Positions 180 through 61,214 of a stretch of DNA of 64,000 bases are shown piece by piece. Both the position numbers and the translations under genes were made by a program. Source of the stretch: a candidate division WOR-3 bacterium (GTDB lineage Bacteria > Hydrothermota > Hydrothermia > LBFQ01). Each line of letters opens with the position of its first letter. Positions within the stretch are counted from its first letter, which is position 1. Where the stretch lies: positions 64,001 to 128,000 of the forward strand of contig JBDRWW010000001.1 in assembly GCA_039802605.1 (NCBI GenBank), in the 5' to 3' direction. The notes beneath the pieces were generated by a model. The model searched no databases. It saw only the letters and a list, made by a program, of their open reading frames with translations, and was not told the origin of the DNA.

Positions 180-189
180 ACAATACATT

Positions 190-1320
190 CTAAGGGTGTT
201 TTAAGACATCGTAATAAACCCTTTCAACCATGGCGGCAATGTTTTCCCAAGAGTAGTACTTTGCGGTTTCTAAACCGTTTTTTATTAACTTTTCCCTTAA
301 ACCTTCATCCTTCAAAACCCCAAGCAATGCCTTCGCATAATCATCCCTATTCTTAACATCAACCAATACGCCGTTCTCCCCATCCCTTATAACATTAACA
401 TAACCCTCGTTTTTGGCCGCAACTACCGGAACACCCGAAGCCATAGCCTCAATTAAAACCAAACCGAAGGTTTCACCACCTACCGCCGGAGAAGTATAAA
501 CCGTTGCCCCCCTATAAACCTTTGGGAGGTCTTCAAAGGGTATTCTTCCCAAAAAATGAACCCTGTTTTTTAACCCTTCGGGAACCCTTTTCATTAAAAA
601 ACCCCTTAGAGGCCCATCACCCGCAAATATCAAATGTACATTCCCTTTCTCAAAATCTCTTGCGTATAGGATAAAGGTTTCAAGCAATATATCCGGACCT
701 TTCCTCGGCTCCAACCTACCCACAAACAAAACCGCTTTCCCATTAATCTTTGAATAGATTTCATGCTTTTCACCCTCCGGCCTAAACCTTTCGGTATCAA
801 CCCCATTCGGTATTATCTCGTACCTGCCTTTGAAGAAGGGTTCCATTAAACCCTTTGCGGTTTCGGAAACTGCTATCGCAACCCTAATTTTTTTCCATAC
901 GGGCATGAAGAAAAATCTTGCAACCTTATACCAGTTAAACCCAACAAAAGATGTATGGAATGTGCTAACTACGGGGTATGGTGAAAAAAGGGTTGCGGCG
1001 CAGGGGAGGTTGGGGGCCAAGGGTCCATGCGTATGAACAATATCAAAACGTGTTTCCTTTAAAAACCTCCGAACTTTGTAATGTAATAACGGGTCAAAAG
1101 TTAAGGTTATCTGGGATTTGTTCAGAGGTAAAAGGATTACCCTACCAATCCTATGAACATTCTCATTAAACTCCTCATCGCCCTTTCCGTATGAAGTGGT
1201 TAGTATATAAATCTCGTGCCCTCTTTTCCTGAGGTATTTTGAAAGGGAATATATGTGTTCGGAAACACCCCCCGGAAAGGGATAATATGCATCCGATACT
1301 TGAAGGATTTTTAATTTCAA
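190..1320 (-). CDS. Glycosyltransferase family 4 (PimA-like mannosyltransferase)
   Basis: N-terminal GGVSEH, VGRLEPRKG, ETFGLVLIEAMASG GT-B motifs. Confidence 0.85.
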   Translation of the reverse strand: MKLKILQVSDAYYPFPGGVSEHIYSLSKYLRKRGHEIYILTTSYGKGDEEFNENVHRIGRVILLPLNKSQITLTFDPLLHYKVRRFLKETRFDIVHTHGPLAPNLPCAATLFSPYPVVSTFHTSFVGFNWYKVARFFFMPVWKKIRVAIAVSETAKGLMEPFFKGRYEIIPNGVDTERFRPEGEKHEIYSKINGKAVLFVGRLEPRKGPDILLETFILYARDFEKGNVHLIFAGDGPLRGFLMKRVPEGLKNRVHFLGRIPFEDLPKVYRGATVYTSPAVGGETFGLVLIEAMASGVPVVAAKNEGYVNVIRDGENGVLVDVKNRDDYAKALLGVLKDEGLREKLIKNGLETAKYYSWENIAAMVERVYYDVLKHP

Positions 1321-2165
1321 TAAAGGTTTTCGGCCAACCTTTTAAGTCTTTCTATACGCTTTTCTACGGGTGGATGCGTTGAAAAGAGTTCCATTAAGAA
1401 ACCACCGGAGAGAGGATTTACAATAAACATGTGGGACATAAACTCTGGAACCTCTGCTTCAACCGCCTGGGTACCATAAGCCAATTTTTCAAGGGCGGAT
1501 GCTAAGGCCAGAGGATCGTTTATAAACCTAGCACCCGTTTCATCCGCTATGTATTCCCTACTCCTTGATATCGCGAGCTTAATTAGCATAGCCGCTATGG
1601 GTAAGAGTATTATGGCGACCAAAAGGGCCAAAGGATTCCTGTCCCTATCCCTCCCACCAAAGAATATTAACCCCCACCTAAGCATATCGGCTATATAAAC
1701 TATTGCGGCAGCCAGCGTTGCCGCTACGGACATAATGAGTATATCCCGGTTTTTTATATGGGCAATTTCATGTGCTATAACACCTTTTAACTCCCTTCTA
1801 TTCAAAAGCCTCAATATCCCCTCCGTAAATACCACGGCGGCGTTCTTCGGATTCCTACCCGTTGCAAAGGCGTTTGGTTGTGGAATTGGAGCTATGTAAA
1901 TCTTGGGTTTGGGTATCCCGGCGGATACGGCAACCTCTTCAACCAGTGCGTGTAATTCCGGAGCCTCTTCCTCGCTAACCTCCCTAGCACCAACGGAAGC
2001 CGTGGCAATCTTGTCGGAGAAAAACCAAGCTATGAAATTCATCAAAGCGGCCATGAACAGGGCTATTATCATACCATAACTCCCGCCTATTAACTTGCCC
2101 GCATAAACCAACAATACACTTAAAATCGCCAAAAACAAGAATGTTTTTATCGTATTCCCCATCAT
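1317..2165 (-). CDS. htpX: Zinc metalloprotease HtpX (M48)
   Basis: PNAFATGRNP, AHEIAH zinc motif, SRSREYIAD, FSTHPP. Confidence 0.95.
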   Translation of the reverse strand: MMGNTIKTFLFLAILSVLLVYAGKLIGGSYGMIIALFMAALMNFIAWFFSDKIATASVGAREVSEEEAPELHALVEEVAVSAGIPKPKIYIAPIPQPNAFATGRNPKNAAVVFTEGILRLLNRRELKGVIAHEIAHIKNRDILIMSVAATLAAAIVYIADMLRWGLIFFGGRDRDRNPLALLVAIILLPIAAMLIKLAISRSREYIADETGARFINDPLALASALEKLAYGTQAVEAEVPEFMSHMFIVNPLSGGFLMELFSTHPPVEKRIERLKRLAENLY

Positions 2166-2173
2166 AACCGTTA

Positions 2174-2193
2174 ATTTTAAACGGGATTAAAAT
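2174..2193. promoter_or_regulatory. Back-to-back divergent -10 elements for htpX and hisC
   Basis: Minus-strand TAAAAT (2174-2179) is 8 nt before the htpX ATG. Plus-strand TAAAAT (2188-2193) is 7 nt before the hisC ATG. Both have C 6 nt upstream. Confidence 0.7.
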
Positions 2194-2200
2194 CTCCGGT

Positions 2201-3253
2201 ATGGGATTTTTGAGGGAGGATATAAGCTTCTCAACCCCTTTTACGGTTAGCCAAAAACCATATGTTGCAAAGTTGGACCAAAACGAATCCCCTTACGATA
2301 TACCCGAAGAAATAAAGGAGGTTTTACTTGAAGAGATAAAAAGGATGTCTTGGAATAGATACCCACAACCCGCAATTTACGAGGAGGTTAAAGAAAGTTT
2401 TGCCAAGGCCTTGGGAGTTAAACCGGAAAATATAGCCCTAACCTTTGGAGGAGATCAAACGATTCTAAGCGCTTTTTGGATAGCGGGGGGAAAGGGTAAA
2501 AGGTGCATAATATACGAACCCACATATCCTATGATAAGGCATTATGCGGCAGCGACATCAACCGACGCGGATATAAAGGTACTGGGAGAAGAGTTTTTTC
2601 CAAACCCTTCCGATTTTAAAGGCAAGGATTATAACATAATCTTCTTCGTTTCCCCAAACAACCCAACGGGGCATCTAATAAGTAAAGAAGTAATAAAGGA
2701 GGCTTTGGAAACGGGGGCATTGGTGTTTGTGGATGAGGCTTACTATCCGTTTTCCGGAATAACGGTTTGGGATGACTTAAAGGATTATCCGAATTTAATG
2801 GTGGGTAGATCCCTTTCAAAGTCCTTATTGGCCGGTATGAGGATGGGTTATGTTCTGGCTTCAAAAGAAATAATACGGGCGGTTGATTATATGAACTTTG
2901 CACCATACAACCTTACGATCTTTCAATTGGCGATTTTTAAAAGGTTCGGTGATATAATGGGATTTTTAAAGAAGGCCACGAATGAGGTTGTTGAGGAAAG
3001 GGAAAGGGTTTATAAAGCTTTGGAAGGACTCGGATTTAAACCCATAAAGTCTTACGGAAACTTCATAATGTTTAAGGTTAGAGACCACGAAAGGGCATAT
3101 AAGGTATTTGTAGAAGAAGGCATAAGGATAAGGGATGTTTCCGGCCTACCCGGGTTGTCAAACCACCTGAGGGTTACAATTGGCTTAAATGACGAGAACG
3201 ATAAGTTTATAGAAGTTTTAAAGAAATTAGTCCCGCACCTGCTCCCAGAATAA
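2201..3253 (+). CDS. hisC: Histidinol-phosphate aminotransferase family PLP enzyme
   Basis: KLDQNESP, NRYP, SPNNPTG, VDEAY, RSLSK...AGMRMGY. Confidence 0.75.
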   Translation: MGFLREDISFSTPFTVSQKPYVAKLDQNESPYDIPEEIKEVLLEEIKRMSWNRYPQPAIYEEVKESFAKALGVKPENIALTFGGDQTILSAFWIAGGKGKRCIIYEPTYPMIRHYAAATSTDADIKVLGEEFFPNPSDFKGKDYNIIFFVSPNNPTGHLISKEVIKEALETGALVFVDEAYYPFSGITVWDDLKDYPNLMVGRSLSKSLLAGMRMGYVLASKEIIRAVDYMNFAPYNLTIFQLAIFKRFGDIMGFLKKATNEVVEERERVYKALEGLGFKPIKSYGNFIMFKVRDHERAYKVFVEEGIRIRDVSGLPGLSNHLRVTIGLNDENDKFIEVLKKLVPHLLPE

Positions 3254-3884
3254 AGCATAAAAACAAATCCCCAAAACCCCACCTGAGTTTGAGCAAAAAC
3301 GAGAATATTTTCTCCCTTAAAGGGTAAAATACCCAGAAAATTACCAAGGCCATCAACAATTCGGGAAACGTTTTAACAAAAACCAATATCCATAAATGGC
3401 CGGTTATTATGTGCCAAATGGTTTTCTTCTCTTCATATTCATACGAAAAGAGAAAATAAAAGGCCATAAGCATAAGGTGGAAAATTACGGGTAAGGGGTT
3501 AAAGGCGTAATAAAATAGAAGGATGCTAACGGTGATTGGTACTATAAATTCAAACCAAGGATTGCCTTGGAAATGCCTTAAAGAGAGATGCTCTAACGCC
3601 CTTTCGGGCTCCTTTACGGGTATTATAGGAAGGAGTATTAAAGATAGCGAAAAAAATCCGGGTATGTCAAAGTTCCCATTGTAAAATGCCGTTTTGATAT
3701 TCTCAATTAAGACAAAAAGAAGGAGAACGAAGAGATAGGCGAACAATTTCCCCCGCGATAACATCAACAAAACCATCCATAAACCCAATAAAAACACAAA
3801 AAAGCCGTAAAAGGGATATAAACCCTCCCCTAAAAATATTTTCTCCAAGCAAAGGACGATAGCACCAAATAATACCCAAATCAA
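3207..3884 (-). CDS. Hypothetical multi-pass membrane protein
   Basis: 225 aa, mostly hydrophobic segments; starts 1 nt after the SDR stop. Confidence 0.65.
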   Translation of the reverse strand: MIWVLFGAIVLCLEKIFLGEGLYPFYGFFVFLLGLWMVLLMLSRGKLFAYLFVLLLFVLIENIKTAFYNGNFDIPGFFSLSLILLPIIPVKEPERALEHLSLRHFQGNPWFEFIVPITVSILLFYYAFNPLPVIFHLMLMAFYFLFSYEYEEKKTIWHIITGHLWILVFVKTFPELLMALVIFWVFYPLREKIFSFLLKLRWGFGDLFLCFILGAGAGLISLKLL

Positions 3885-3885
3885 A

Positions 3886-4629
3886 TCATTCCTTGGGTTT
3901 TACCCCCACCGACCAACCACCATCTATTGGTATGGCGGCACCGTTCATCCAAGCGGATTCATCGCTTGCGAGATAAACGGCCAAAAATGCCACATCTTCG
4001 GGCCATCCTCCCCTATATGGGAGTTTATCCGTCCTCAAAGTTTCAAAATCCGAAAACAGTTCATGCGAAACACCATCAGGGCATATTACATTTGCCCTTA
4101 TGTTGTATTTTGCGTAATCCCTTGCAACGGTTTTAACAAAAGCGACTATTGCCGCCTTTGTGGCGTTGTATATTGACGAACCCGATGCAACCCCAAAATT
4201 ACCATATACCGCGGCCGTGTGAATATACACACCCCCACCCCACTCCTTAAACAGGGGCAATGTTTCCCTAACGACAAATACATGGGATAGGAAATTACCA
4301 TCCCAAAGCATTTTTATGGTTTCCTCATCAACCTCCTCCACATTTGTAGGTGTCCAATAACCCGCATTTACAAAGACTACATCTATTTTTCCAAGTTTTT
4401 TAACGGCATCCGAAACAAAACCCTTTACCTCGTTCAATTTTGAGGCATCCGCCCTATAAGAATAAACCTCATAACCCTTACCCTTCAAAAACTCCGCAAT
4501 TTCATGGCACTTTTCAGACCTTGAAACTAGGAATAACTTCGCCCCTTCCTTTGCCATTGCGTAAGCCGACGCCCTACCTATACCGCTACCAACACCGACT
4601 ATAATTATCTTCTTATCTTTTAACCTCAT
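3886..4629 (-). CDS. SDR family oxidoreductase
   Basis: GVGSGIG NAD(P)-binding motif, NAG, YNATK catalytic motif, IDGG. Confidence 0.9.
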   Translation of the reverse strand: MRLKDKKIIIVGVGSGIGRASAYAMAKEGAKLFLVSRSEKCHEIAEFLKGKGYEVYSYRADASKLNEVKGFVSDAVKKLGKIDVVFVNAGYWTPTNVEEVDEETIKMLWDGNFLSHVFVVRETLPLFKEWGGGVYIHTAAVYGNFGVASGSSIYNATKAAIVAFVKTVARDYAKYNIRANVICPDGVSHELFSDFETLRTDKLPYRGGWPEDVAFLAVYLASDESAWMNGAAIPIDGGWSVGVKPKE

Positions 4630-4680
4630 TCCGAAATTCTACGGTTGTTAGTATTATTATCAACCATACAATTCCGTGTT

Positions 4681-5613
4681 ATGAAGAAAGTTGCGATAAT
4701 AGGAGCCGGAAATGTTGGAAGCGAAGCCGCAAGATATTTGGCATACAAAGGCATAGCCCATATAGTCCTTTTGGATATAGTTGAGGGTATAGCAAAGGGA
4801 AAGTCGCTTGATCTATTGCACGCGGGGCCAATAGAGTGCGCAACGGTATCCATTGAGGGAACCTCCGATTATGGTCCCATTGAAAACAGCGATGTGGTTA
4901 TTATAACGGCAGGAAAGCCCAGAAAACCGGGTATGTCGAGGGAGGAACTTTTAAAGGTAAATTTTGATATTGTCAGCGGTATAGCGGAAAAGGTTAAGGA
5001 GTATGCCCCCAATTCCGTAGTTATCGTGGTATCAAACCCGCTTGATGCAATGGTATATACCACATATAAGATTACGGGTTTTCCGAGGGAAAGGGTTATG
5101 GGCATGGCAGGCTTGCTGGATTCAGCCAGGTTTGCGGCATTTATAGCCCAAGAAGTTGGAGTTTCACCGGCGGATGTTAGGGCTATGGTTATGGGAACCC
5201 ATGGGGATTTAATGGTTCCTCTTACTAGATTCACCACAATAAACGGTATTCCCGCCACTGAGTTTTTATCGGAGGATAAATTGAAGGAAATCGTTGAAAA
5301 GACGAGGTTTGCCGGTGGAGAAATAGTTAAACTTATGGGTACTAGCGCGTGGTTTGCCCCAGGAGATGCCGCCGCCTTTATGGCGGAAGCCGTATTACTC
5401 GATACCAACAGGGTTTTATCCGCATCCGTGTACTTGACCGGTGAATACGGTATAAACGGGGTATTTGTGGGTGTCCCTGTGGTTTTGGGGTGGGGAGGAG
5501 TTAAGAGGATATTGGAGGTTAAACTTACGGAAGAAGAGATGGAGGCTTTGAAGAAGAGCGCGGACCACATAAAGGAACTACAAGAACAGGTTGATGAGCT
5601 CTTGAAGGGATGA
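4681..5613 (+). CDS. mdh: Malate dehydrogenase (LDH-like)
   Basis: GAGNVG, AGKPRKPGMSR, SNPLD, LDSARF, GTHGD. Start moved to ATG 4681, with TACAAT 8 nt upstream. Confidence 0.95.
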   Translation: MKKVAIIGAGNVGSEAARYLAYKGIAHIVLLDIVEGIAKGKSLDLLHAGPIECATVSIEGTSDYGPIENSDVVIITAGKPRKPGMSREELLKVNFDIVSGIAEKVKEYAPNSVVIVVSNPLDAMVYTTYKITGFPRERVMGMAGLLDSARFAAFIAQEVGVSPADVRAMVMGTHGDLMVPLTRFTTINGIPATEFLSEDKLKEIVEKTRFAGGEIVKLMGTSAWFAPGDAAAFMAEAVLLDTNRVLSASVYLTGEYGINGVFVGVPVVLGWGGVKRILEVKLTEEEMEALKKSADHIKELQEQVDELLKG

Positions 5614-6191
5614 GAAAAGCCTTAATATTTTTTGCCTTTTTAATTTCATGCGGTAAGGGTATAAACTATTCCCAAAGTTTTCCTTATGACAAGGGTTATG
5701 TTTTGTTTGACCAAAACGGGAAAGAGAGGAAGTTGGACGAATTCAAAGGGAAGGTATTGGTGGTTGGATACATATACACGCATTGTCCGGATATATGCCC
5801 ACTTATCACGGATAACATGAGGAAGATATACAAAGAGGTTTCCAAAAACGGTTGGTCTAATAAGGTTGTTTTCCTGAGTATATCCTTTGATCCGAGGAGG
5901 GATAAACCCGAAGTTTTAAATAATTATGCAAAGATATACGGCTTGGATACCGTTAAGAACTGGTTTTTCCTTACGGGGAATCCAAAAACCATAGATTCCT
6001 TAATGAAAGACCTTTCAATAGTGGTGGAGATTGGCCCTATGGAAGTTTCTGAAAGTGGGGATACAATATATTTCATTGTGCATACGGATAGGATACACAT
6101 AGTGGATAAGAGGGGAAAAATTGTTAGTTATTTTAAGGGGAGCGAAGCAAATGTTGATGATGTTATAAAGGCAATAAGGAGGGCAATATGA
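5610..6191 (+). CDS. SCO family copper chaperone, lipoprotein
   Basis: Lipobox-like LISC, YTHCPDICP, DPRRD, conserved C-terminal His. Confidence 0.92.
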   Translation: MRKALIFFAFLISCGKGINYSQSFPYDKGYVLFDQNGKERKLDEFKGKVLVVGYIYTHCPDICPLITDNMRKIYKEVSKNGWSNKVVFLSISFDPRRDKPEVLNNYAKIYGLDTVKNWFFLTGNPKTIDSLMKDLSIVVEIGPMEVSESGDTIYFIVHTDRIHIVDKRGKIVSYFKGSEANVDDVIKAIRRAI

Positions 6192-6559
6192 TTTGGATGC
6201 TTGCGTTTATTGACATAGCGGATATTTGGGCGAGGCCGGGTATTAAGGGGGGAAACTCGGCCGTTTATATGGTCATAAGGAACAACGATACGCTTCCGGA
6301 TACGCTGTATAAAGCTTCATCGGACATAGCGGCAATGGTGGAAATACACAAGACATATAAGGACAAGAAGGGGAAAATGGGTATGGAAAGGGTTGATTAT
6401 GTGGTTATACCTCCAAAGGGAGAATTTAAACTTGAACCCGGGGGGTACCATATTATGCTTATGAAGTTGAAGAAAAACCTGCGAGGGGGTAAAAAGTTTA
6501 ACCTTTCGCTTTATTTCAAGAGGGCCGGGAAAATAGATATAACGGCTGAGGTGAAATAG
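6188..6559 (+). CDS. Copper chaperone PCu(A)C
   Basis: WARP, EIH...MGM, PGGYHIML motifs. Confidence 0.9.
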   Translation: MIWMLAFIDIADIWARPGIKGGNSAVYMVIRNNDTLPDTLYKASSDIAAMVEIHKTYKDKKGKMGMERVDYVVIPPKGEFKLEPGGYHIMLMKLKKNLRGGKKFNLSLYFKRAGKIDITAEVK

Positions 6560-6599
6560 GGGGAGATAAAAATCCGTCAAGCGTATAATATATTCTTGT

Positions 6600-6685
6600 G
6601 GAGGGTTGCGCCGAATTGGTAAGGCAGCGGATTTGAAATCCGCCGGGGCTTAGGCCCCTTGGGGGTTCGAGTCCCCCACCCTCCG
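6600..6685 (+). tRNA. tRNA-Ser(TGA), CCA not encoded
   Basis: GGAGGGT/ACCCTCC acceptor stem, GCGGA-TTTGAAA-TCCGC anticodon arm, long variable arm, GTTCGAGTC. Confidence 0.95.
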
Positions 6686-6691
6686 CTTTAT

Positions 6692-7060
6692 ATGATTTTT
6701 GATTACGGTTCGGAAGGCGGTGGGATTGTAGTTCTGGGTTCTTCGGAAATTGTAAATCAAATAGCCCTAAACATCTCCACGTTTTCCGCACTAATGGTTG
6801 AAAATGTAGATTTACCGGAAAACTACGGGGATTTTGTCAATATGTTAAAAGAAAAATCCCCAAAGTTTGTAATAGGGGATGAAAGCGCTTACGAATACCT
6901 TTTAAGGTATTCACAAGAGGGTGGAATTCCGGCCATCTTTAAACCTCTAAGTGTGGAATACGACCTTGCAAGCGGTGGTTTATTGGTAAAATGCAGGGTT
7001 GGTGAAAGGTTTGCGGCAACTCTATCCGTAAATGGGGATAGAATCGTCATTGCCGTATAA
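6692..7060 (+). CDS. Hypothetical protein
   Basis: First ATG outside the tRNA, 6 nt after the discriminator base; 122 aa of protein-like composition. Confidence 0.65.
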   Translation: MIFDYGSEGGGIVVLGSSEIVNQIALNISTFSALMVENVDLPENYGDFVNMLKEKSPKFVIGDESAYEYLLRYSQEGGIPAIFKPLSVEYDLASGGLLVKCRVGERFAATLSVNGDRIVIAV

Positions 7061-7841
7061 GGAGTTCGTATATCTTTCCGCACATCAGAGGTTTTCCGAG
7101 GCAAAGGGGTTAATACCTGGGCTTGATAAGAAAAAACTCATAGAATGGATAAGGTATCACCTTTTGGGTTCAATGCTTTACGAGGTTTTTCCAGACTTAG
7201 AGGAACTTTCGCTTGACAGGGCTCAAACGGTTATATTTTGGAGAATAATAGGGGAAATCGTTGATATTTTTGCAAACTCGCCGGTTGATGTTGTTGTTTT
7301 CAAAGGGGGACATATAAAGGATTTTTATCCAAACCCTTATTGGAGGATGATCTCGGATTTAGATGTTTATGTTAGGGCGGGGGATATTGATAACTTGGAA
7401 GATTATTTATTGGGTTCGGGTTTTAAAAAGACCTCTACGGGATATTACCAACGCTCGTACAACTACAAAGGTATAATGGTTGAGGTTCATAGCAGGTTTG
7501 CGAGGAGGTTGTATCCAGATGTTATAAATGGGGATTTGGTTTTTAAACATTCCGATAGAGTTAAAGGCTCGGTTTTGTATCCCACTAAGGATTTGGAAAT
7601 AACGATTTTTTATTTCCACGCCTACAAAAGCGCGTATACGACATCTTTTAGGGCTATATGGTGGCTTGACGAGTATTTTTTAAAATCCGCAGGCGCAAAA
7701 CCATTAAACATTCCAAAAATAAAAACCTGCATAAAATGGTTTGAAGGCTTTAATTGGAAAAACCTGGTATGCAAGGACCCCCCAAAGATTTACAGGAGCA
7801 TCTTGGGAATCCCGCACGCCTTGATCCTCAGGCTATTTTAA
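7032..7841 (+). CDS. Nucleotidyltransferase family protein (NTP_transf_5-like)
   Basis: VFKG...YPNPYWRMISDLDVYV and VEVH motifs. Confidence 0.75.
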   Translation: MGIESSLPYKEFVYLSAHQRFSEAKGLIPGLDKKKLIEWIRYHLLGSMLYEVFPDLEELSLDRAQTVIFWRIIGEIVDIFANSPVDVVVFKGGHIKDFYPNPYWRMISDLDVYVRAGDIDNLEDYLLGSGFKKTSTGYYQRSYNYKGIMVEVHSRFARRLYPDVINGDLVFKHSDRVKGSVLYPTKDLEITIFYFHAYKSAYTTSFRAIWWLDEYFLKSAGAKPLNIPKIKTCIKWFEGFNWKNLVCKDPPKIYRSILGIPHALILRLF

Positions 7842-8808
7842 TTAAGCCCATATCCACCGCCTCGTTTAAAACCTTTTCCCATCCCAACTCCTCCAAAACC
7901 GTCCATCTGTGCGGCCTTGTAAAGGATGCCTTTGAAAATACCATTTTTACAAAATCTTCTTTCATCTCAATACTTTCGGGAAATCCGATACCTATAAGAT
8001 ATTTCCTGACCCTTTCCCAATCCTTATAACCGTTTAACTTTAAAAACAGGGGGGTGAAAAAGCCCACCTGTATTCCATGCTTTCCACCAAACCCCAGAAT
8101 ATCAAGGGAATGGCTCATTTTATGCTCCGGGCCACTTGCGGGCCTTGAAGAGCCCGATATTTCCATAGCCCAACCGCTTAAAATCAAACCCCAAGCGAGA
8201 ATCTCCAAGTTCTCAAAGGGATTTAAATCTAAAATTGATAACGCGGAAGATTTTGATATTAGAGATGCCAAAAAACTATAAGGTTCCGATGACTTATCCT
8301 TAAATTTATCCCAATCAATGGAAGCGGAAAGGTTGGAGATTAAATCCCCAGTTCCCGCCAATATACTCCATTCGGGCGCTTCGGAAATTATGGAAATATC
8401 AACTATTACACCGTAAGGCAAGCCTATGAACTCACTTTTGTGATTTTTAACACCAACGGGTGATGCTATGCCATCGCTTGATAGCAATGTGGGTATTGAA
8501 ATAAAGGGCAATCCCAATTCCTTTGATAAAAATTTTCCCCTATCGATTACGGAACCCCCACCTACGGATATTATGCACCTAAGAACATCACCGGCATTAC
8601 CCAGTATCCCTTTAAGAATCTCCCCATATTGCCTTGAAAAACTTTTCCCGTGGAGGATCAAACAGGAGTTTTTACCAAAAATATCCCTTAACCTATAAGC
8701 CCACTCCTCCAAAATCCCAAAGCCCACATCAACTATTTTATAAAATTTTACACCATCCGTAACAATCTCTTTACTCCCAACCTCAAAACCATCCAAAAAG
8801 CCTCCCAT
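7828..8808 (-). CDS. egsA: sn-glycerol-1-phosphate dehydrogenase family (EgsA/AraM-like)
   Basis: GGGSVID, PTLLSSDGIASP, GDLISN, SSRPASGPEHKMSHSLD, HGIQVG. Start codon uncertain. Confidence 0.8.
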   Translation of the reverse strand: MGGFLDGFEVGSKEIVTDGVKFYKIVDVGFGILEEWAYRLRDIFGKNSCLILHGKSFSRQYGEILKGILGNAGDVLRCIISVGGGSVIDRGKFLSKELGLPFISIPTLLSSDGIASPVGVKNHKSEFIGLPYGVIVDISIISEAPEWSILAGTGDLISNLSASIDWDKFKDKSSEPYSFLASLISKSSALSILDLNPFENLEILAWGLILSGWAMEISGSSRPASGPEHKMSHSLDILGFGGKHGIQVGFFTPLFLKLNGYKDWERVRKYLIGIGFPESIEMKEDFVKMVFSKASFTRPHRWTVLEELGWEKVLNEAVDMGLIKIA

Positions 8809-9461
8809 ATTATTCCCCTGTTTAACTTTGATTTTCCCGCCCTCCTTTCAACGAATATTATCGGCATTTCACACACCTTAAAACCCTTAACCCAAAGGTA
8901 AAAGTGTATTTCTATTTGAAAGGCATAACCGTCGGACCTTATCTTGTTCAAATCAATGGATTTTAGACACTCAACCTTTATAGCCTTAAAACCCGAAGTC
9001 AAGTCCTTAATATTTACACCCGTAAAAATCCTCGCATAAAGGTTTGCAAAGTATGATAGTAAAAGCCTGGTTATCGGCCAATTGACTACGCTAACACCCT
9101 TAACATACCTTGAACCTATTACCACATCGCAGTTTTCAAGGTTTTCAACCATTCGCTCAATATCCTTAGGGTCATGGGAAAAATCCGCATCCATTTCAAC
9201 CACAACATCATAACCCCTTTCAATGGCCCATTTGAATCCGGTAATATATGCCGAACCCAAACCCATCTTTTTCGGTCTTTCCAACAAGTGTATCTTTTTA
9301 TCCTTTTCTTGCATGGTTTTTACGATGCCGGCCGTCCCATCGGGTGAGCTATCGTCTATTACCAAAACATCGGGATCCACACTTAAACTACGAACTTCCT
9401 TTAATATAGCGGCTATATTGTCCGCCTCGTTATATGTGGGAATTATTACGAGAACTTTCAC
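8748..9461 (-). CDS. Polyprenol-phosphate mannose synthase (DPM1-like GT2)
   Basis: [39 protein letters not shown]. Confidence 0.9.
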
Positions 9462-10318
9462 CCGTACTTATAAAACCCTTCGCCGGTTTTCCTTCCCAAT
9501 TTACCCGCTTCCACCATCTTTACGAGCAAAGGACAAGGTCTATATTTTGGATCCCTTAGATCGTTGTAAAGGACTAGTAAAATGTTTAAACACACATCCA
9601 AACCTATAAAGTCCGCCAGTTGCAAAGGTCCCATAGGATGGTTCATACCGAGTTTCATAACCGTATCTATGGCTTCCTTGTCCGCCACACCCTCATATAA
9701 AGCCCATATAGCCTCGTTTATCATGGGCATTAAAACCCTGTTTGACACAAAGCCGGGATAATCCTTAACCTCAACGGGAACCTTCTCCAACCTTTTAGCG
9801 AGTTCTATTATTACATTTACCGTTTCATCCGATGTTGAATAACCCCTAACGACCTCCACGAGTTTCATCACGGGTACCGGATTGAAAAAGTGCATTCCGG
9901 CAAAAAGTTCGGGCTTTCCCGTGTAATTCGCCAACCTGGTAATGGAAATTGAGGATGTGTTTGATGTTATTATAACCTCCGGCCTTACGATTTTGGAAAC
10001 ATGCGAAAGTACATCCCTCTTTACGGTTTCCTCCTCGAAAACCGCCTCAACCACAAAATCAACATCCGATAAAAATCCTATATCCGTGGATGTTTGTATG
10101 CGGGAAAGTATTTCACCTATACTATCCTCGGATATTATACCCTTTTTGGCCTGTCTGTGTAGGTTTTTCTCTATGGTTTCCAGGGCATTTTTTAACTGCC
10201 CCTCACCCTTATCAACTAGTTTAACGGAATATCCGTATTGGGCAAATACATGGGCTATACCGTTTCCCATTGTTCCAGCGCCTATTACACCCACGACTTT
10301 TATATTTTCCACATTCAT
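9458..10318 (-). CDS. hbd: 3-hydroxybutyryl-CoA dehydrogenase
   Basis: [30 protein letters not shown]. Confidence 0.92.
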
Positions 10319-10370
10319 AAGGCCGATATTTTACCCTTGAAAGGGTTTTCAGCGGTAAAATACCCAACTT

Positions 10371-11147
10371 ATGTTCTTGCTATACCCATACATTTCCGCC
10401 TACAAGGTTGTTTATACAAAGGGTTGGGATTTAAGGGTAGGGGTTGATATAGTGGGTAATTTTTGGTATTATTCCATTCCAACATACGACCAGTACGGAT
10501 TTGCGGGTTATACCCAAACGGATTTTGGCCAAAGCATAAATTATTACTTCGGTTCAACGGATTTTTCGTATTCAAACGGCAAGTTGGCTTTCAGCGTATT
10601 TTATAATTCTATAAAACAAAACCGGCTAAACGCCTACGATGTTGATATAAATGAGAACTTTTACGGCTATGGGTTGAGTTTGGGTTATACCCCATTTAAG
10701 AACATATCAGTTGGTTTAACCGGGGAGATTTATAACGATAACAGGTTTGTAGGTTTGGAAGCTTTATTCGGATACGGTTATAACTTTTACATTGGGGGGA
10801 ATGTTCTAAGGGGATTAAGCGGTGGTATAGACTACCTTATGTTTTCGTCCGTGGCGTTAAAAGATGAGAGGTTTTCAGAGTTGAAGTTTTACTTAACAAA
10901 CAGGTATAAATCCATGGGAATATTGAGGTATGAGACATTCTTAACGAAAAATTTGCGGGTTAAATTGGGGGCGGGAGCCATATACGAAGACAGCACATAT
11001 AAACCGCTTTTTCTGGTGGGGCAGGAGATGAACCAACTCGACCGGGTCTTGGGAATTGATATAGGGGTTTATCCGAGAAGTGCGGAAATCAGGGGTGGCA
11101 GGGTTGATTGGAATGAAATAATGCTTTACATATGGCTGAAAATCTAG
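10371..11147 (+). CDS. Hypothetical protein, possible outer-membrane beta-barrel
   Basis: Alternating aromatic/Gly beta-strand pattern, C-terminal YIWLKI. Confidence 0.6.
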   Translation: MFLLYPYISAYKVVYTKGWDLRVGVDIVGNFWYYSIPTYDQYGFAGYTQTDFGQSINYYFGSTDFSYSNGKLAFSVFYNSIKQNRLNAYDVDINENFYGYGLSLGYTPFKNISVGLTGEIYNDNRFVGLEALFGYGYNFYIGGNVLRGLSGGIDYLMFSSVALKDERFSELKFYLTNRYKSMGILRYETFLTKNLRVKLGAGAIYEDSTYKPLFLVGQEMNQLDRVLGIDIGVYPRSAEIRGGRVDWNEIMLYIWLKI

Positions 11148-12061
11148 CCCATACACCCGTTTTATTTAAGGAAGCGATAGAACTTTTGGATTTAAAGGAG
11201 GGTTTAATAGTTTTGGATGCAACATTCGGTTTGGGAGGGCATGGATTTGAAATGGCGCAAAGGATAAAACCGGGTATTCTCATAGCCTTAGAAAAAGATC
11301 CGTTCACATACTCCTTGGTATCCCAAAAAATCCCAGCACTATCCAATATAAAACTCTTTAACACGGGCTACGAAAACCTTGACAAAGTGATGTTAAAATT
11401 GGGTTTGAGCTACATTGATAGGGCTTTTTTTGATTTGGGAATTTCATCCGTTTCCCTGGAAAACCGTAGGGGTTTCTCTTTTAAAAAGGACGAGGTTTTA
11501 GACCTGAGGTTTAACCCAAATGAGGGGAAACCCGCTTATGAAGTCTTAAAAGAATTGAATGAAATGGAAGTTGAAAGGATTTTACGGGTTTATGGGGAGG
11601 AGAGAAAGTCAAGGATAATTGCCAAAAAGATCTATAAAATCGCAAGAGAGGTAGATATCATAAGGACTTCACACATTTCAAAGGTTGTGGATTCCGTTTA
11701 TCCCCCACCTTTAAGGTCAAAGGCAAAGGCAAGGGTTTGGCAGGCTTTGAGGATATATGTTAATAACGAACTGGAAAACCTCAGGAAGGGTTTAGCCTTG
11801 GCTTTAAAGTATTTAAAGGTTGGTGGGAGGTTGGTGGTTATAACTTTTCATTCCTTGGAAGACAGGATGTTAAAAAGTCTCAGATATTTCCCTTTTGTGG
11901 AGGATATAACGGGAAAACCGATAACCCCTACGCGAGAAGAGGTTGAGGAGAACCCAAGAAGCAGATCCGCAAAAATGAGGGTTTTCATAAAGGTTGGTGA
12001 GGTGGATCATTACAAACTTTTGAGGGATAGAAGGTTTGCAAACCCCTTTAAGATAAAATGA
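11132..12061 (+). CDS. rsmH: 16S rRNA m4C1402 methyltransferase
   Basis: HTPVL, DATFGLGGH, DLGISS, FHSLEDR, NPRSRSAK. Confidence 0.95.
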   Translation: MAENLAHTPVLFKEAIELLDLKEGLIVLDATFGLGGHGFEMAQRIKPGILIALEKDPFTYSLVSQKIPALSNIKLFNTGYENLDKVMLKLGLSYIDRAFFDLGISSVSLENRRGFSFKKDEVLDLRFNPNEGKPAYEVLKELNEMEVERILRVYGEERKSRIIAKKIYKIAREVDIIRTSHISKVVDSVYPPPLRSKAKARVWQALRIYVNNELENLRKGLALALKYLKVGGRLVVITFHSLEDRMLKSLRYFPFVEDITGKPITPTREEVEENPRSRSAKMRVFIKVGEVDHYKLLRDRRFANPFKIK

Positions 12062-12240
12062 GGGGCATTATTATCCACATCATCATAATTTCCCTTATCC
12101 TCCTCTTAAGCGCCGTTATGAACTCTTACACTATTACCATTTTGAGTAAAAAAATGGCGGTAAAAAGGGATGAGCTCAGGAAAACCTCTTGGGTTGAGGA
12201 TAGCATTAGATTTTTGAGGTTTTCAAAACCTTATGAGTAG
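12058..12240 (+). CDS. Small membrane protein, FtsL-like by position
   Basis: Single TM helix plus short coil; ATGA overlap with rsmH. Confidence 0.5.
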   Translation: MRGIIIHIIIISLILLLSAVMNSYTITILSKKMAVKRDELRKTSWVEDSIRFLRFSKPYE

Positions 12241-13043
12241 ATATAACCGAAAAACCTAAACAAAAGGAAAAAACCTACCAGAGACATTATTAAGCTATCA
12301 ACCCTATCAAACAAACCCCCATGACCGGGCATAATCTTGCCGGAATCTTTAACCCCCTTTTCCCTTTTTAATGCGGATTCGACCAGATCCCCCAATTGTG
12401 CAAATACACCTATATATATTCCGCTTAAGGTGTAAAAGGGAAGCCTGTCAAATCCCCAGAAAGCATACCCCAATATTCCACCAACGATGGCGCTTGTTAA
12501 CAACCCACCCAACAAACCCTCCAAGGTTTTACCGGAACTAATCCTAGTAAATATTTTCCTCCTTCCGGAGAATTTACCGAATAGATATGCACCCGTATCA
12601 AATGACCAATTAACCGCTAATACAAAAAGGCACAATTCAAACGAAAATTCCCTCAAAGTTATAATTATATTTGCGGGCACCAAGATATATACCGCCACGG
12701 CCAAAAGTATCAAGGCCTCTTTAACGCTAAAACCCAAAAGGTAATTTACAATGCCGAATATAAACAGAAGGATAAAGGATAGTATAAATCCACCTTCCCA
12801 AAACGCCAAACCTATGGCAAACAAACCCACAAAAAAACTTAACAGGCTAAACCTATTAACAACCAAACGATATATTTCATAATACAGGATTATTATGGCT
12901 ATGAATATCGCGAGTTTGAAATATATTCCCCCAAGCCAAAAGGCCAAGGCAAAGGGGGGTAGGATTAAGACAACGCCTAAAATTCTCTTAAACAGATCAT
13001 ACAACTTTTCCAAATTTTCTGACCCTCTTTGAAAAATCCTCAA
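12231..13043 (-). CDS. cdsA: Phosphatidate cytidylyltransferase
   Basis: DTGAY.FG, SSGKTLEG, GDLVESALKR..VKDSG..PGHGG..DRVD. Start may be TTG 13013. Confidence 0.93.
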   Translation of the reverse strand: MRIFQRGSENLEKLYDLFKRILGVVLILPPFALAFWLGGIYFKLAIFIAIIILYYEIYRLVVNRFSLLSFFVGLFAIGLAFWEGGFILSFILLFIFGIVNYLLGFSVKEALILLAVAVYILVPANIIITLREFSFELCLFVLAVNWSFDTGAYLFGKFSGRRKIFTRISSGKTLEGLLGGLLTSAIVGGILGYAFWGFDRLPFYTLSGIYIGVFAQLGDLVESALKREKGVKDSGKIMPGHGGLFDRVDSLIMSLVGFFLLFRFFGYIYS

Positions 13044-14230: not shown

Positions 14231-14258
14231 AAGCGTGTATTTTACCCCCGTAAAATTT

Positions 14259-15595: not shown

Positions 15596-15654
15596 TAATC
15601 GGGAATTATACCGTTGAAAACGATAAACCCTTCACCCTTATAATATCCGCCTTC

Positions 15655-15738
15655 GGTGGGGTTCCCGAGCGGCCAAAGGGGCCAGGCTGTAAACCTGGTG
15701 GCGTAACGCCTTCGGGGGTTCAAATCCCTCCCCCACCA
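15655..15738 (+). tRNA. tRNA-Tyr(GTA), CCA not encoded
   Basis: GGTGGGG/CCCCACC acceptor, CCAGG-CTGTAAA-CCTGG anticodon arm, variable arm, GTTCAAATC. Confidence 0.95.
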
Positions 15739-15742
15739 CTTT

Positions 15743-19982: not shown

Positions 19983-20073
19983 AATTGGGAATTATACTCC
20001 CGGTATATTCCCCATAAATGCCCGTCCCGGACCTTTCAAACCATTTATTTCTCCAACCTTAGAATTTTCACCG

Positions 20074-21932: not shown

Positions 21933-21943
21933 AATTTTGGGTT

Positions 21944-50130: not shown

Positions 50131-50171
50131 AACTTTGTAGTATAAAGTTGAGGACCTTATAATATTTGCCC

Positions 50172-53104: not shown

Positions 53105-53137
53105 ATTTTAATAGCGAAACGGCCGTATTATAACTTC

Positions 53138-54037
53138 TTGAAACTTTCGGAAATCGTAAAGGAACTCCTTTATGGGGAGGATGGGTATTACACAAAATAT
53201 GTCTCAATTGGTAAAAGGGGGGACTTTTTCACCGCCCCGCATACATCCCCACTTTTTGGATATACAGTGGGGAGATTTTTAAAAAGGGAGGGTGTTAAGT
53301 TTTTTGTGGAGATCGGTGGTGGTGAAGGTTATATGATGGAGGATATACTAAACTTTACGGATTTGGAAGGTGTAATATACGAAATAAGTCCGAAGTTGAA
53401 AAAAATTCAAGGAGAGAGGTTAAAGAAATTTGGTAAAAGGTTTAAGCATATTGAAAAACTTCTAAATGCGGATGCTTACGTTTTAAACGAGGTAATTGAC
53501 GCCCTACCCTTTAACAGGTTTGTGTTTAAGGGCGGAAGGTGGTGGGAATATGAATACATTGATGGGGAATGGGTATTGATGGAAGGAGAACCAGAGGATT
53601 TTGGAATTGAACCTCCTGAGGGGTTTATTTACGATGAAACGGAGAATTTGGAAAGTTTTTTAAAGCAGATTTTTGAAAACACCAAAAGGATTTTGATATT
53701 CGATTACGGTTATGAGGAAGAGGAATTCCCAATTTTGGCACCGGAAGGCACACTTTCGGGATATAAAGAACACAAAGTTTATTACGGTTTTGATGCGTTA
53801 AAAGGGGGTATGGATATAACCCATTTCGTGAATTTCACAAGGATTAAAAGGATAGCGGAAAAGTATAATTTTAAAGTTAAAATAGACCTCCCACAAACGG
53901 AATTTTTGCTCAAATTTGGAATACTGGACATCTTTTATGAAATTGAAGAACACGAGAAAGCGAAGTTATCCGGAGGTTTAAAAACCCTACTGTTCTCCTT
54001 TAAGAACCACAGGGCTTTGTATCTAACATCTTTATAA
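53138..54037 (+). CDS. SAM-dependent methyltransferase, MidA/NDUFAF7 family
   Basis: LY...GYY, GDFFTAP, EIGGGEG, NEVIDALP, FDYG, DITHFVNF. Confidence 0.85.
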   Translation: MKLSEIVKELLYGEDGYYTKYVSIGKRGDFFTAPHTSPLFGYTVGRFLKREGVKFFVEIGGGEGYMMEDILNFTDLEGVIYEISPKLKKIQGERLKKFGKRFKHIEKLLNADAYVLNEVIDALPFNRFVFKGGRWWEYEYIDGEWVLMEGEPEDFGIEPPEGFIYDETENLESFLKQIFENTKRILIFDYGYEEEEFPILAPEGTLSGYKEHKVYYGFDALKGGMDITHFVNFTRIKRIAEKYNFKVKIDLPQTEFLLKFGILDIFYEIEEHEKAKLSGGLKTLLFSFKNHRALYLTSL

Positions 54038-54044
54038 TGCATAC

Positions 54045-55142: not shown

Positions 55143-56179
55143 AAAAGGCTTTAATACTCGCACCCAATAGGTGGGATGGAACCCTTGAAGTGGGTATATT
55201 CAAGTTTGCAAAATTTTTAAAGAACTTGGGATTCGAGATTAGGAGTATAAACCTTGAAGGTTTTAGGTATTTACCGTCTAAAACCTTCGGATGGATATTC
55301 CCCAAAAATTTGGGGAAACAATATAAAATTTTTTGGAACTTAACCCATTATTTAAATTCCTTTAAGGTTTGGGAGAATTGGGATATTTTAATGTGCGATG
55401 CGAGTCATATGTTGTTTTTTGCGAATAGAATAAAGGCAAGGACTAAAATATACCGTTTAAACGATTATTTGGAGGGATTTGGACTCCCATCGTTTTTTGT
55501 AGATGAGGAAAAACGGTTTATAGAGTTATCCCATGCGGTTATTTCCGCCCATTCAACCCTTTCTTACAAGGTTCCGGATAAGGAAAAATTCTTTTTACTA
55601 CCAAACCCCATAGACCTGGAACTTTTTCCGTTAGAAGGTGTAGAAGAACCCCCGGATTTAAAAAACATCCCAAAACCCCGTATTATATATGTTGGGGCGG
55701 TTTATCAATGGTTTGATTGGGAAGCGGTTATATATTGCGCAAAGGAACTAAAAAACCTTTCCTTTGTGATCATTGGCCCATATACGAATATACCAAAGGA
55801 TATTCCCAAGAATGTTTTTATACTCGGGAAGAGGCCTCATACACGGATATACGAATACCTATACCATTGCGATATCGGTTTTATACCCTTCAAGTTATCC
55901 CCCTTGATAACCCATATGGATTATCCCAATAAGGTTTTGGAATATTTTGCAATGGGTTTGCCCGTGGTTAGCATCCATTGGGAGAGCTTTTCCAAAAACT
56001 TCCCGGAGGTTATGTTTTACAAGGAGTATAAGGAAATCCCGCAACTGTTAAAGGAGGCTTTAAAAAGGGGAAAGGATTACGCTTTGAGGGAAAAGGTTTT
56101 GGAGTTTTCATCGGATAAGATTTTTTCCAAATTCAAGGAGATAATTTTAGAATTAACCCACGGAAAAATTACACGGTAG
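55139..56179 (+). CDS. Glycosyltransferase (TuaH/GumK-like GT-B)
   Basis: [13 protein letters not shown]...[25 protein letters not shown] overlap with the upstream gene. Confidence 0.8.
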
Positions 56180-56193
56180 TAAAATCACCGCTT

Positions 56194-59583: not shown

Positions 59584-60740
59584 CTGAAAGCCTCTATTCC
59601 GGTAATCGCCTCGCCGAGTATAAGTGTATGTATCTCGTATGTGCCTTCATATGTTTCAACGGCTTCCAAATTGGCCAAATGCCTCATTGAATGGTATTCC
59701 GCCAATGTTCCGTTTGCACCTAGTATTGCCCTTGCCCTCCTGGCCACCTCTATTGCCGTTCTTACATTATTCCTCTTTGCCAAAGATACATGCCTAAAAT
59801 TCGCCCTGCCACTATCCATAAGTTCCGCCAACCTCCAAGCGATCAATTGGGCCTCCGTTATTTCGGTGAGCATATCGGCCAACTTCTCCTGAATGAGTTG
59901 AAAGGATGCTATGGGTTTCCCAAAGGCAATCCTCGTTTTGGCATAATTAACGGCTTCTTCAAATGTTGCCATTGCGCTACCAACGGCACCCCATGCTATT
60001 CCATACCTAGCCTGAGTTAAACAACTCAGAGGGGCTTTTAACCCCTCCGCCTTTGGTAGTACATTCTCTTCGGGTACAAAAACATCGTTGAATATCAACT
60101 CCGAGGTTATGGATGCCCTCAAAGAAATCTTTGTCTTTAATTCCTGTGTTGCAAAACCCTCAAAACCCCTTTCAACGAGAAAACCCCTTATAACCCCTTT
60201 TTCATCCTTTGCCCAAACAACGGCGACATCTGCTATTGAACCGTTGGTTATCCACATCTTTGCACCGTTAAGGATATAACCGCCTTTTACCTTTTTTGCA
60301 TGGGTTTTCATAGAACCCGGATCGGAACCCGAATCCGGCTCGGTTAATCCAAAACAACCAACCATATCGCCGGATATGAGTTTGGGCAAAAACCTTTTTT
60401 TCTGCTCATCACTGCCGTATGTTAATATTGGATAAATTACCAAAGAATTCTGAACGGATACAAAACTCCTTATTCCAGAGTCCGCATATTCAAGTTCCCG
60501 GGCAACCAAACCGTATATCCTCTTACTCAGATTTAATCCCCCATATTCTTCGGGTGCGTTAATGCCAAGCAATCCCAACTCTGCAAACCTCTTCACAAGA
60601 TGCATCGGAAAAATCCCCTTTAACCACCAATCCCCTATATAGGGTAGGATTTCTTTTTTAACAAATTCCCTAACCATATCCCTTATCTGCCTTTCTTCCT
60701 CGTTTAAATCCTCATCCAGAAGGTAGAAATCCGCCAACAT
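59577..60740 (-). CDS. gcdH: Acyl-CoA dehydrogenase, glutaryl-CoA dehydrogenase-like
   Basis: DSGIRSFVSVQ.SL, GCFGLTEPDSGSDP, ARYGIAWG, KRNNV, TYEGT. Second ATG (60740) fits the promoter spacing. Confidence 0.8.
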   Translation of the reverse strand: MLADFYLLDEDLNEEERQIRDMVREFVKKEILPYIGDWWLKGIFPMHLVKRFAELGLLGINAPEEYGGLNLSKRIYGLVARELEYADSGIRSFVSVQNSLVIYPILTYGSDEQKKRFLPKLISGDMVGCFGLTEPDSGSDPGSMKTHAKKVKGGYILNGAKMWITNGSIADVAVVWAKDEKGVIRGFLVERGFEGFATQELKTKISLRASITSELIFNDVFVPEENVLPKAEGLKAPLSCLTQARYGIAWGAVGSAMATFEEAVNYAKTRIAFGKPIASFQLIQEKLADMLTEITEAQLIAWRLAELMDSGRANFRHVSLAKRNNVRTAIEVARRARAILGANGTLAEYHSMRHLANLEAVETYEGTYEIHTLILGEAITGIEAFRC

Positions 60741-60752
60741 AAGCATTTAATT

Positions 60753-61214
60753 CTAAGGTTGGTTTAAAACGAACCCCAAAAGGGAATTTAAAATCCTATT
60801 AACCGCCTCAAACTTTGATTTTACCCTATCCCCAAAAACCTCTATCCTTTTCAAGGTATAATTGTTGTCGTCTTGGTAGATGCAAAAATACAAATAACCA
60901 TGGCCGTTAAACTCACCCGTAGTTGATATTCCTATATCCGAATTTGACAACCTTTTTACATTTTTAGCCATCTCGTATGCAACTTCCGGCGAATAAACGG
61001 AAAAATACCTTATGGTTTCATGTGAAACACCCAAAACCCCCTCCTTCATCTCCGTTTGATACACCACCAGTCCTAAAACAAAATATCCGGAAGAACCCGG
61101 TATGGATGTTAATGCGCTTGACAACTCACCACCCGTACACGACTCCGCTACCGAAACTTTTATCTTTTTCCTTAAAAGCAGGTTTCTTAAACACAGTAGT
61201 TTATAATTCTTCAA
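60753..61214 (-). CDS. pncC: CinA C-terminal domain / NMN amidohydrolase
   Basis: AESCTGG, PGSS.YF, STTG. Confidence 0.8.
   Translation of the reverse strand: MKNYKLLCLRNLLLRKKIKVSVAESCTGGELSSALTSIPGSSGYFVLGLVVYQTEMKEGVLGVSHETIRYFSVYSPEVAYEMAKNVKRLSNSDIGISTTGEFNGHGYLYFCIYQDDNNYTLKRIEVFGDRVKSKFEAVNRILNSLLGFVLNQP

Follow-up and report, generated by a model that had tools for sequence, protein, structure and literature searches.

Can a single base in the spacer of a housekeeping promoter become as conserved as the -10 box itself? The question is raised by a 64,000-nucleotide stretch of a WOR-3 genome (the window; bases 64001-128000 of contig C1 of the host genome, G000, which has 1.65 Mb and 41% GC). 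Its initial annotation described a C exactly 6 nucleotides (nt) upstream of TAnAAT-like hexamers at the heads of transcription units. Here, we analyzed this C, its distribution among relatives, and the parts of RNA polymerase that may read it. We call its position -18, a numbering that presumes a hexamer at -12 to -7; with transcripts starting on the ATG, the C would sit at about -20.

A fixed C precedes the -10 box at gene heads

Gene heads were collected by a search blind to the C, requiring TAnAAT followed after 6 to 11 nt by an ATG that is in frame with, and among the first 60 codons of, an open reading frame (ORF) of at least 100 amino acids. Within the window, all 21 sites recovered carry the C; genome-wide, 450 of 490 sites do (92%, 1.72 bits). 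Deep inside genes, the C precedes 632 of 3,406 TAnAAT hexamers (18.6%; Fisher p ~1e-231 against gene heads). The blind search and this contrast with intragenic hexamers, a comparison already envisaged in the initial annotation, therefore dispose of the idea that the C arose from picking sites by eye. All 29 C positions listed in that annotation are indeed C on the strand given, exactly 6 nt before the hexamer (15 on the plus and 14 on the minus strand), and the hexamers are TAnAAT in 27 cases, TATTAT at 53120, and TATACT at 50150. Its two exceptions are likewise as described: waaF has a G at 50152 ahead of TATAAT at 50158-50163, and the promoter at 42973, in what was called an islet, combines TTGAAA-N17-TATAAT with an A six bases upstream of the hexamer. 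Thus, the fixed C at leaderless gene heads is real and strong. The promoters concerned and the gene of the primary sigma factor are as follows, by position in the window and strand.

187-198, minus: C-N5-TAGAAT promoter, GT4 glycosyltransferase gene; ATG 7 nt past the hexamer
2174-2185, minus: C-N5-TAAAAT promoter, htpX; divergent, overlaps the 2182 promoter
2182-2193, plus: C-N5-TAAAAT promoter, hisC-like aminotransferase gene
4636-4647, minus: C-N5-TAGAAT promoter, SDR oxidoreductase gene
4661-4672, plus: C-N5-TACAAT promoter, mdh
6578-6589, plus: C-N5-TATAAT promoter, tRNA-Ser; tRNA begins 10 nt past the hexamer
10328-10339, minus: C-N5-TAAAAT promoter, 3-hydroxybutyryl-CoA dehydrogenase gene
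10350-10361, plus: C-N5-TAAAAT promoter, unit including rsmH
14239-14250, minus: C-N5-TAAAAT promoter, frr
15605-15616, minus: C-N5-TATAAT promoter, ABC ATPase gene
15633-15644, plus: C-N5-TATAAT promoter, tRNA-Tyr
19991-20002, minus: C-N5-TATAAT promoter, TPR protein gene
20054-20065, plus: C-N5-TAGAAT promoter, pyrH
21924-21935, plus: C-N5-TAGAAT promoter, Xaa-Pro peptidase gene; overlaps the end of the upstream gene
24444-24455, plus: C-N5-TAGAAT promoter, tyrS; within the end of the upstream gene
28164-28175, plus: C-N5-TAGAAT promoter, apgM
30835-30846, minus: C-N5-TAAAAT promoter, hpt-fabH
33607-33618, minus: C-N5-TAAAAT promoter, CocE/NonD hydrolase gene
33628-33639, plus: C-N5-TACAAT promoter, acyl-CoA dehydrogenase gene
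39435-39446, minus: C-N5-TATAAT promoter, phoH; leadered, followed by a Shine-Dalgarno (SD)-like AGGAGG
39474-39485, plus: C-N5-TAGAAT promoter, ndk
42950-42978, plus: exception, TTGAAA-N17-TATAAT with A six bases before the hexamer; putative gene head
45009-45020, minus: C-N5-TATAAT promoter, tRNA-Thr
45060-45071, plus: C-N5-TATAAT promoter, nuoN-like gene
50139-50150, minus: C-N5-TATACT promoter, transketolase N-subunit gene
50152-50163, plus: exception, G-N5-TATAAT before waaF; CCT at -15 to -13 kept
53105-53116, minus: C-N5-TAAAAT promoter, glycosyltransferase gene (TTG start)
53120-53131, plus: C-N5-TATTAT candidate; hexamer not TAnAAT, register less certain
54027-54038, plus: C-N5-TATAAT promoter, glycosyltransferase gene (TTG start)
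56174-56185, plus: C-N5-TAAAAT promoter, serS
60750-60761, minus: C-N5-TAGAAT promoter, acyl-CoA dehydrogenase gene
61201-62904, minus: rpoD, primary sigma factor, likely reader of the -10 box, 567 amino acids

The distance from hexamer to ATG peaks at 7 to 9 nt (75, 174, and 142 sites), and the C share lies between 80 and 96% at every distance from 6 to 11 nt; it is therefore the hexamer, rather than the start codon, to which the C is tied. The C is also present at 38 of 46 boxes before GTG starts and at 25 of 38 before TTG starts. Among noncoding genes, we took those found by ARAGORN that have TAnAAT 5 to 25 nt upstream, and all 42 such tRNA and tmRNA promoters carry the C; these are 42 of 47 ARAGORN genes, the other five comprising four inside a tRNA cluster and one without a box. 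The promoter of the RNase P RNA gene (rnpB) has the C as well. When 390 ORFs with a divergent upstream neighbor were considered, 292 had TAnAAT 6 to 11 nt ahead of the start codon, 274 in the leaderless C form and 18 in the leaderless non-C form; the remainder were 39 with a C form elsewhere nearby, 18 with only a non-C box, and 41 with no TAnAAT.

The C is also conserved between relatives. In 58 of 68 orthologous promoter pairs, those with a box on both sides, position -18 is identical in 95%, compared with 41% at -19, 40% at -17, and 29% at -16 (an overall range of 26 to 41% for the flanks). Relaxed TAnnnT hexamers other than TAnAAT had the C in 7 of 21, 19 of 58, and 5 of 62 cases before ATG, a low share suggesting that most of them are not promoters. 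Four of nine listed public RNA runs, compared with positions 2000-21900 of the window, contributed 2 and 1 raw reads and otherwise short contigs, with no pile-up of ends.

The C belongs to a larger promoter that largely lacks a -35 box

Next, the bases around the C were tabulated at the 490 sites. Positions -26 to -24 are A rich (50 to 58% A) and -21 to -19 are A or T, followed by the C, where T (3%) and A (4%) are rare. The initial annotation had the five bases between C and hexamer varying freely, which proved incorrect: C occupies -15 in 64% and -14 in 49% of sites, T occupies -13 in 64%, and T is found at -17 in only 6%. The same features are sharper in the tRNA and tmRNA promoters, with A in 79, 86, and 71% at -26, -25, and -24, C-18 in 100%, C-15 in 90%, a pyrimidine at -14 in 97%, T-13 in 88%, a TAWAAT box, and A-6 in 100%. 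From these strongest promoters, the full form reads AAA (-26 to -24), W-tract (-21 to -19), C (-18), V, V, C (-15), Y (-14), T (-13), TAWAAT, A, Y, C, C, R. Genome-wide, a W-C-C-C-R block lies directly 3' of the -10 box and is fixed at any ATG distance. At distances of 7 to 9 nt, 75 to 85% of sites have a T before the ATG. The purine at position 5 after the hexamer could mark a discriminator contact or a start site that lies unusually near the box. Across all contigs, tRNA genes are nearly all single, each with its own promoter 8 to 15 nt upstream; in the window, tRNA-Ser and tRNA-Tyr end 1 to 3 nt ahead of TTG-started ORFs.

The promoter is not of the TG extended -10 type, as the initial annotation had already recognized: TG occupies -15/-14 in 5 of 450 sites with the C and in 2 of 40 without it. 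Its statement that a -35 box is largely absent is also borne out. Taking a good -35 as TTG plus a match of at least 5/6 at spacers of 16 to 18, we found one in 25 of 490 sites, compared with 0 to 8 per spacing at other distances. We considered a trade-off in which individual promoters would have either the C or a -35, and rejected it, as each of the 25 promoters with a good -35 carries the C too, and TTG occurs in 4 of 40 non-C sites compared with 51 of 450 C sites. Hence, of the earlier proposal that a lineage-specific element substitutes for the -35, the lineage-specific element stands and substitution promoter by promoter does not; replacement can be claimed for the lineage as a whole and otherwise just for the two leadered exceptions seen, the 16S and islet promoters. 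As read by eye, the 16S rRNA promoter (locus L004, about 1407-1435, on contig C3 of G000) is TTGACA-N17-CATAAT with G at -18, and the rRNA operon apparently relies on the ancestral type of promoter.

Of the 490 starts, 4 are preceded by SD-like words, compared with 399 of 1,079 other ORFs. Their rarity at these heads suggests that the mRNAs are leaderless or carry leaders of only 1 to 3 nt.

C-18 is confined to one WOR-3 family

To follow the motif through the phylum, C-N5-TANAAT-N7-9-ATG and a reversed-pattern control were scanned in 200 other genomes. In what follows, the family denotes 12 WOR-3 genomes including the host, the order adds a sister family of 7 genomes, and the class set holds 41 genomes. 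Among relatives, where the initial annotation had proposed to look, all 12 family genomes have C-18 and 190 other WOR-3 genomes show no enrichment of it; it is confined to one family. The host and 10 family genomes gave 365 to 569 matches each, with 7 to 59 for the control, and an incomplete eleventh relative gave 408 C-form and 199 non-C matches. After control subtraction, computed for 30 of 201 genomes, the C share is 0.91 to 1.0 in 11 family genomes, 0 to 0.33 in 7 sister-family genomes, and 0.20 to 0.41 in 12 further genomes chosen for low background. In the 190 nonfamily genomes, whose tables were read by eye, matches of the non-C form are in every case more numerous than those of the C form.

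Within the family, the C is held across 41 to 56% GC: it is present in 13 of 14 sites of the other species of the first genus and in 81 of 91 sites of the second genus (56% GC), where the flanking tracts are weak. In the sister family, the larger genus (28% GC; loci L105-L118, L121, and L123 from genomes G013-G015, G017, and G018) has C-18 in 8 of 80 sites and C-15 in 84%. These 80 sites have an extended box of their own, R-C-T-T-TAAAAT-TTT, and no -35 peak, and two other families show TTG at -35 in small samples of 13 and 12 sites. A scan with the tRNA-promoter consensus for a phage carrying the motif gave 20 single-match loci, none of which had at least three gene heads mostly of the C form.

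The literature searched, in which "-18" cannot be matched as a term and subscription papers mostly lie outside the scope, yielded no description of a fixed C in the spacer. Likewise, no paper joining WOR-3, promoter, and leaderless was found in the full-text literature searched, and the words "promoter" and "leaderless" are absent from a WOR-3 genome paper (PMC12542636). The LF82 preprint and PMC12784957 likewise contained none of the terms looked for in them. The C-18 promoter element is apparently undescribed so far.

RNA polymerase of the family has changed in parts that usually contact upstream DNA

E. coli sigma70 R451 and the beta' zipper had been named in the initial annotation as contacts near -18. 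We compared RpoD, RpoC, and RpoA across the class. RpoD residues (375 to 530, 30 sequences) carry E. coli numbers by offset from the WW pair. The host RpoD (P0001) aligns with RpoD structures through STYATWWIRQAITR, its -10 recognition region 2.3-2.4 is intact, and the equivalents of R451, H455, E458, and region 4.2 are unchanged. R451 is therefore not the novelty, and of the two contacts named only the zipper shows a family-specific change. In this stretch of RpoD, 10 columns are family specific, including E390 and V443. E occupies the E. coli I390 position of region 2.1 in all 11 family RpoD sequences examined, and the family retains Y394, a universal residue that is replaced by F in the rest of the class. 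H446 is common only to the family and its sister family, being present in 18 of 18 sequences, while the 12 others have Q or N. The sigma nonconserved region (NCR) has a class-wide YWTxRxKN insert adjoining the position of E. coli R157, a residue that contacts -16/-17. A structure model with a fold search agrees with the identification as RpoD, at a precision at which residues cannot be placed on the DNA. The genome has two other sigma genes, one for an extracytoplasmic function sigma and one for a 288-amino-acid protein; the latter (locus L003, G000:C13:8898-9614) is group 3 like, without the WW pair in region 2.3, and second sigmas of similar size occur throughout the class.

In the beta' zipper, all 12 family genomes have NYKT and all 18 others of the class NYRT, and the RpoC zipper and zinc region holds nine family-specific columns. 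The changed position is Arg in 144 of 147 diverse RpoC representatives. In published work, the position is Arg in 829 of 834 sequences and touches the -17 nontemplate phosphate (Bae et al. 2015, Table 2; PMC4593229), and the zipper Tyr-Arg pair is needed for spacer-dependent, -35-independent transcription (Yuzenkova et al., PMC3173786). We rejected the zipper Lys as a sufficient cause of C-18, as a Mycoplasmatales genome has the Lys and shows C-18 in only 7 of 96 sites. Elsewhere in this part of RpoC, the zinc-binding domain in the N terminus (locus L039) has a family-specific E near E. coli position 81, which is K or R in 144 of 147 representatives, and a 13-residue insert before the zipper is common to the family and two others. 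The rpoBC genes (G000:C6:63977-77010) are directly followed by genes named by eye from their translations as rpsH-rplF-rplR-rpsE-like, which points to a rearrangement of the usual ribosomal protein operons.

All 41 genomes of the class encode a full-length alpha subunit (host rpoA at L272:1024-2049 on contig C3, minus strand; relatives in L256-L285). Its C-terminal Pfam domain finds no match in the 12 family genomes, a weak one in the 7 sister genomes, and a strong one in the 22 others. The missing match suggested that the C-terminal domain (CTD) had been swapped for another; this was rejected, as both alignment and fold are those of alpha-CTD. In a single-sequence model (predicted local distance difference test score of 69), the best fold match has Z 7.4 and a root mean square deviation of 3.4 over 73 aligned residues, with model residues 31-105 aligning on E. 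coli 251-324. Alpha-CTD residues R265, G296, K298, and S299 reportedly bind UP-element DNA, as Gaal et al. are said to have found in 1996. In the family, these are changed in 12 of 12 genomes (R265 to K, G296 to S, K298 to D/E, S299 to D). The sister family keeps G296 and S299 in 0 of 7 genomes and R265 in 1 of 7, and the other families of the class keep R265, G296, and K298 in 22 of 22; across the order, the motif NxGKKS has become GxSEDD. The altered domain is well conserved inside the family, with 41 of 80 columns invariant. Binding of UP elements by alpha-CTD is described in PMC2613000.

How the C may be read

Taken with the promoter sequences, these changes make it probable that the housekeeping promoter of the family is a lineage-specific extended -10 element, for which the RpoD holoenzyme itself would be the putative reader. 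The argument is as follows. With a -10 box 7 to 9 nt before most first-in-unit starts and no SD, transcripts would be leaderless or nearly so. Comparison within the class indicates that the order largely dropped the -35, lost the UP-element-binding residues of alpha-CTD, and came to use C-15, and that the family then added C-18; C-15 would thus have been gained first and C-18 later. With the distal contacts gone, the sigma 2.4-3.0 linker and 3.0 helix and the beta' zipper may recognize the C:G pairs at -15 and -18 base-specifically in double-stranded form, and specificity and stability of the closed complex may derive from this. The zipper and the sigma 2.4-3.0 stretch are the parts of the enzyme known to lie beside -15 to -18, and matching changes are found in both. 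More speculatively, sigma H446 might belong with C-15, and the zipper Arg-to-Lys change plus its neighbors with C-18. A bolder version, possible in our opinion although we would sooner bet against it, is that C-18 is a new base-specific core promoter element that arose by stepwise rewiring and is contacted by the core polymerase, in the zipper region, rather than by sigma; the promoter would then span some 25 bp, with the core enzyme giving housekeeping specificity.

Several observations weigh against reading by the holoenzyme. About 8% of gene heads lack the C, and 41 of the 390 divergent heads have no TAnAAT nearby. The known sigma contacts R451, H455, and E458 are unchanged. Arg to Lys is a conservative replacement, and the known zipper contact is to the backbone and not to a base. 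The Lys of the Mycoplasmatales genome comes without C-18, and two Calescibacterium-like loci with the zipper Lys have the C in 0 of 2 promoter candidates, which are too few to decide. Moreover, kin share many residues by descent, so the correlations in RpoD and RpoC amount to one evolutionary event.

If not by the holoenzyme, the C might be read by a family-specific factor that, like GcrA, RbpA, or CarD, binds polymerase at nearly all promoters. The sigma residues facing -14 to -17 are unchanged, as this would allow, and docks for such a factor could be the NCR of sigma, with its class-wide YWTxRxKN insert next to the R157 position, or the rewired alpha-CTD, whose strong conservation in the family suggests that some role is retained. 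However, a single base is little for a separate protein to recognize, and no CarD-sized gene was found in the 41 genomes of the class, where only frames of Mfd or RecG size match. Nor did a candidate gene for the factor emerge, although gene content was not compared across the family; we judge this explanation unlikely. A reading of DNA shape, in which C-18 would be the junction between phased A- and W-tracts and the GC-rich block, with bend or groove width sensed through the backbone by R451 and the zipper, is quite unlikely. It gains from the resemblance of the tracts at -26 to -24 and -21 to -19 to the AT-tract at -17 to -23 (PMC7229825) and from the finding that, in E. coli, position -18 alters DNA bending and acts via R451 (PMC3130263). 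Nevertheless, published shape elements are loose, whereas here one base is 92 to 100% fixed with variable neighbors, and the second genus keeps the C in spite of its weak tracts. Base reading is thus favored over shape reading because T is found at -18 in only 3% of sites and the neighbors are free.

Two further explanations place the origin of the C outside recognition of the promoter in the forward direction. The C could lie opposite a G at which an antisense transcript initiates, as expected of symmetric bidirectional promoters with start sites 18 bp apart, in which +1 on one strand coincides with -18 on the opposite one (PMC10268837); the geometry fits, and the A-6 of all tRNA promoters provides a TAnnnT on the opposite strand. 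Nonetheless, the C is independent of the base at -6 (A, 268 of 291; T, 142 of 155; C, 26 of 27; G, 14 of 17), and for this we rejected such an origin. Promoters of that kind also favor T rather than C, and the mirror G at the forward +1 is found in only 4% of cases, which leaves the explanation very improbable. Finally, an effect of translation, methylation, or base composition is scarcely credible: the C keeps its place relative to the hexamer rather than to the ATG and occurs at noncoding RNA genes, the variable flanks leave no constant target of 4 to 6 bp, and the background share is only 18.6%. Reading of the C by the RpoD holoenzyme remains our preferred explanation.

Other features of the window

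A geranylgeranylglyceryl-phosphate synthase family gene lies at positions 46486-47160 and a glycerol-1-phosphate dehydrogenase-like gene, scoring below the curated cutoff, at 7828-8808. Together they make up the archaeal-type pair for ether lipids that is known to occur in FCB bacteria.

Relation to known promoters and meaning

The C-18 promoter works like an extended -10, leaderless promoter and falls outside the TGn, Z-element, -18T/AT-tract, and -35/-10 classes as these are defined. Its closest parallel in layout is found in Deinococcus deserti, where most mRNAs have a leader of 0 to 5 nt and a TATAAT-like box lies right before the start without a widely conserved -35 (de Groot et al. 2014, PMC4007540). 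In contrast, the consulted sections of that paper report no fixed spacer base, and here TAnAAT is stricter, the ATG is 7 to 9 nt away, and C-18 and C-15 are added. With the TG extended -10, read by sigma region 3.0 (PMC4593229), it shares double-stranded bases just upstream of the -10 that can replace a -35; here, however, CC or CY is preferred at -15/-14 and the best-conserved base lies 3 nt further up, at -18. The Z-element (Yuzenkova et al. 2011, PMC3173786) likewise reaches -18 and supports -35-free transcription via zipper residues Y34 and R35. It differs in being a loose 5-mer, AACCT at -22 to -18 of T7A1, in which single changes have less than 2-fold effects, whereas we find one near-invariant base and a zipper Lys. 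Words like AACCT or AACAT are not seen at -22 to -18 here, where -21 to -19 are A or T and -18 is C; the commonest spacer does have AACCT at -17 to -13, five bases downstream, probably by coincidence. In E. coli, -18T and the AT-tract matter, through sigma70 R451, when the -35 is poor (Singh et al. 2011, PMC3130263; PMC7229825), but there T or A is weakly preferred via DNA shape, and here C is near-invariant. Lastly, a core promoter survey of 49 bacteria (Kuo et al. 2025, PMC12641261) also has an AT-tract followed by a GC-rich block beside the -10. In its text sections, the figures and supplement being outside our scope, the block is G rich, no fixed spacer C is reported, and Bacteroides and Alphaproteobacteria are the deviations named; a similar C in those figures or supplement would lower the novelty of ours.

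The spacer of primary-sigma promoters is usually regarded as loosely constrained, and the discussion of the Z-element paper leaves undecided whether the zipper reads bases or DNA shape (PMC3173786). One spacer base conserved like those of the -10 box, together with sister lineages that lack C-18 and a short list of polymerase changes, amounts to a natural experiment on zipper reading. The loss of the DNA-binding motif of alpha-CTD in free-living bacteria predicts that UP elements have no function in the order, and with C-N5-TAnAAT, start codons and operon heads of these uncultured genomes can be called by a precise rule.

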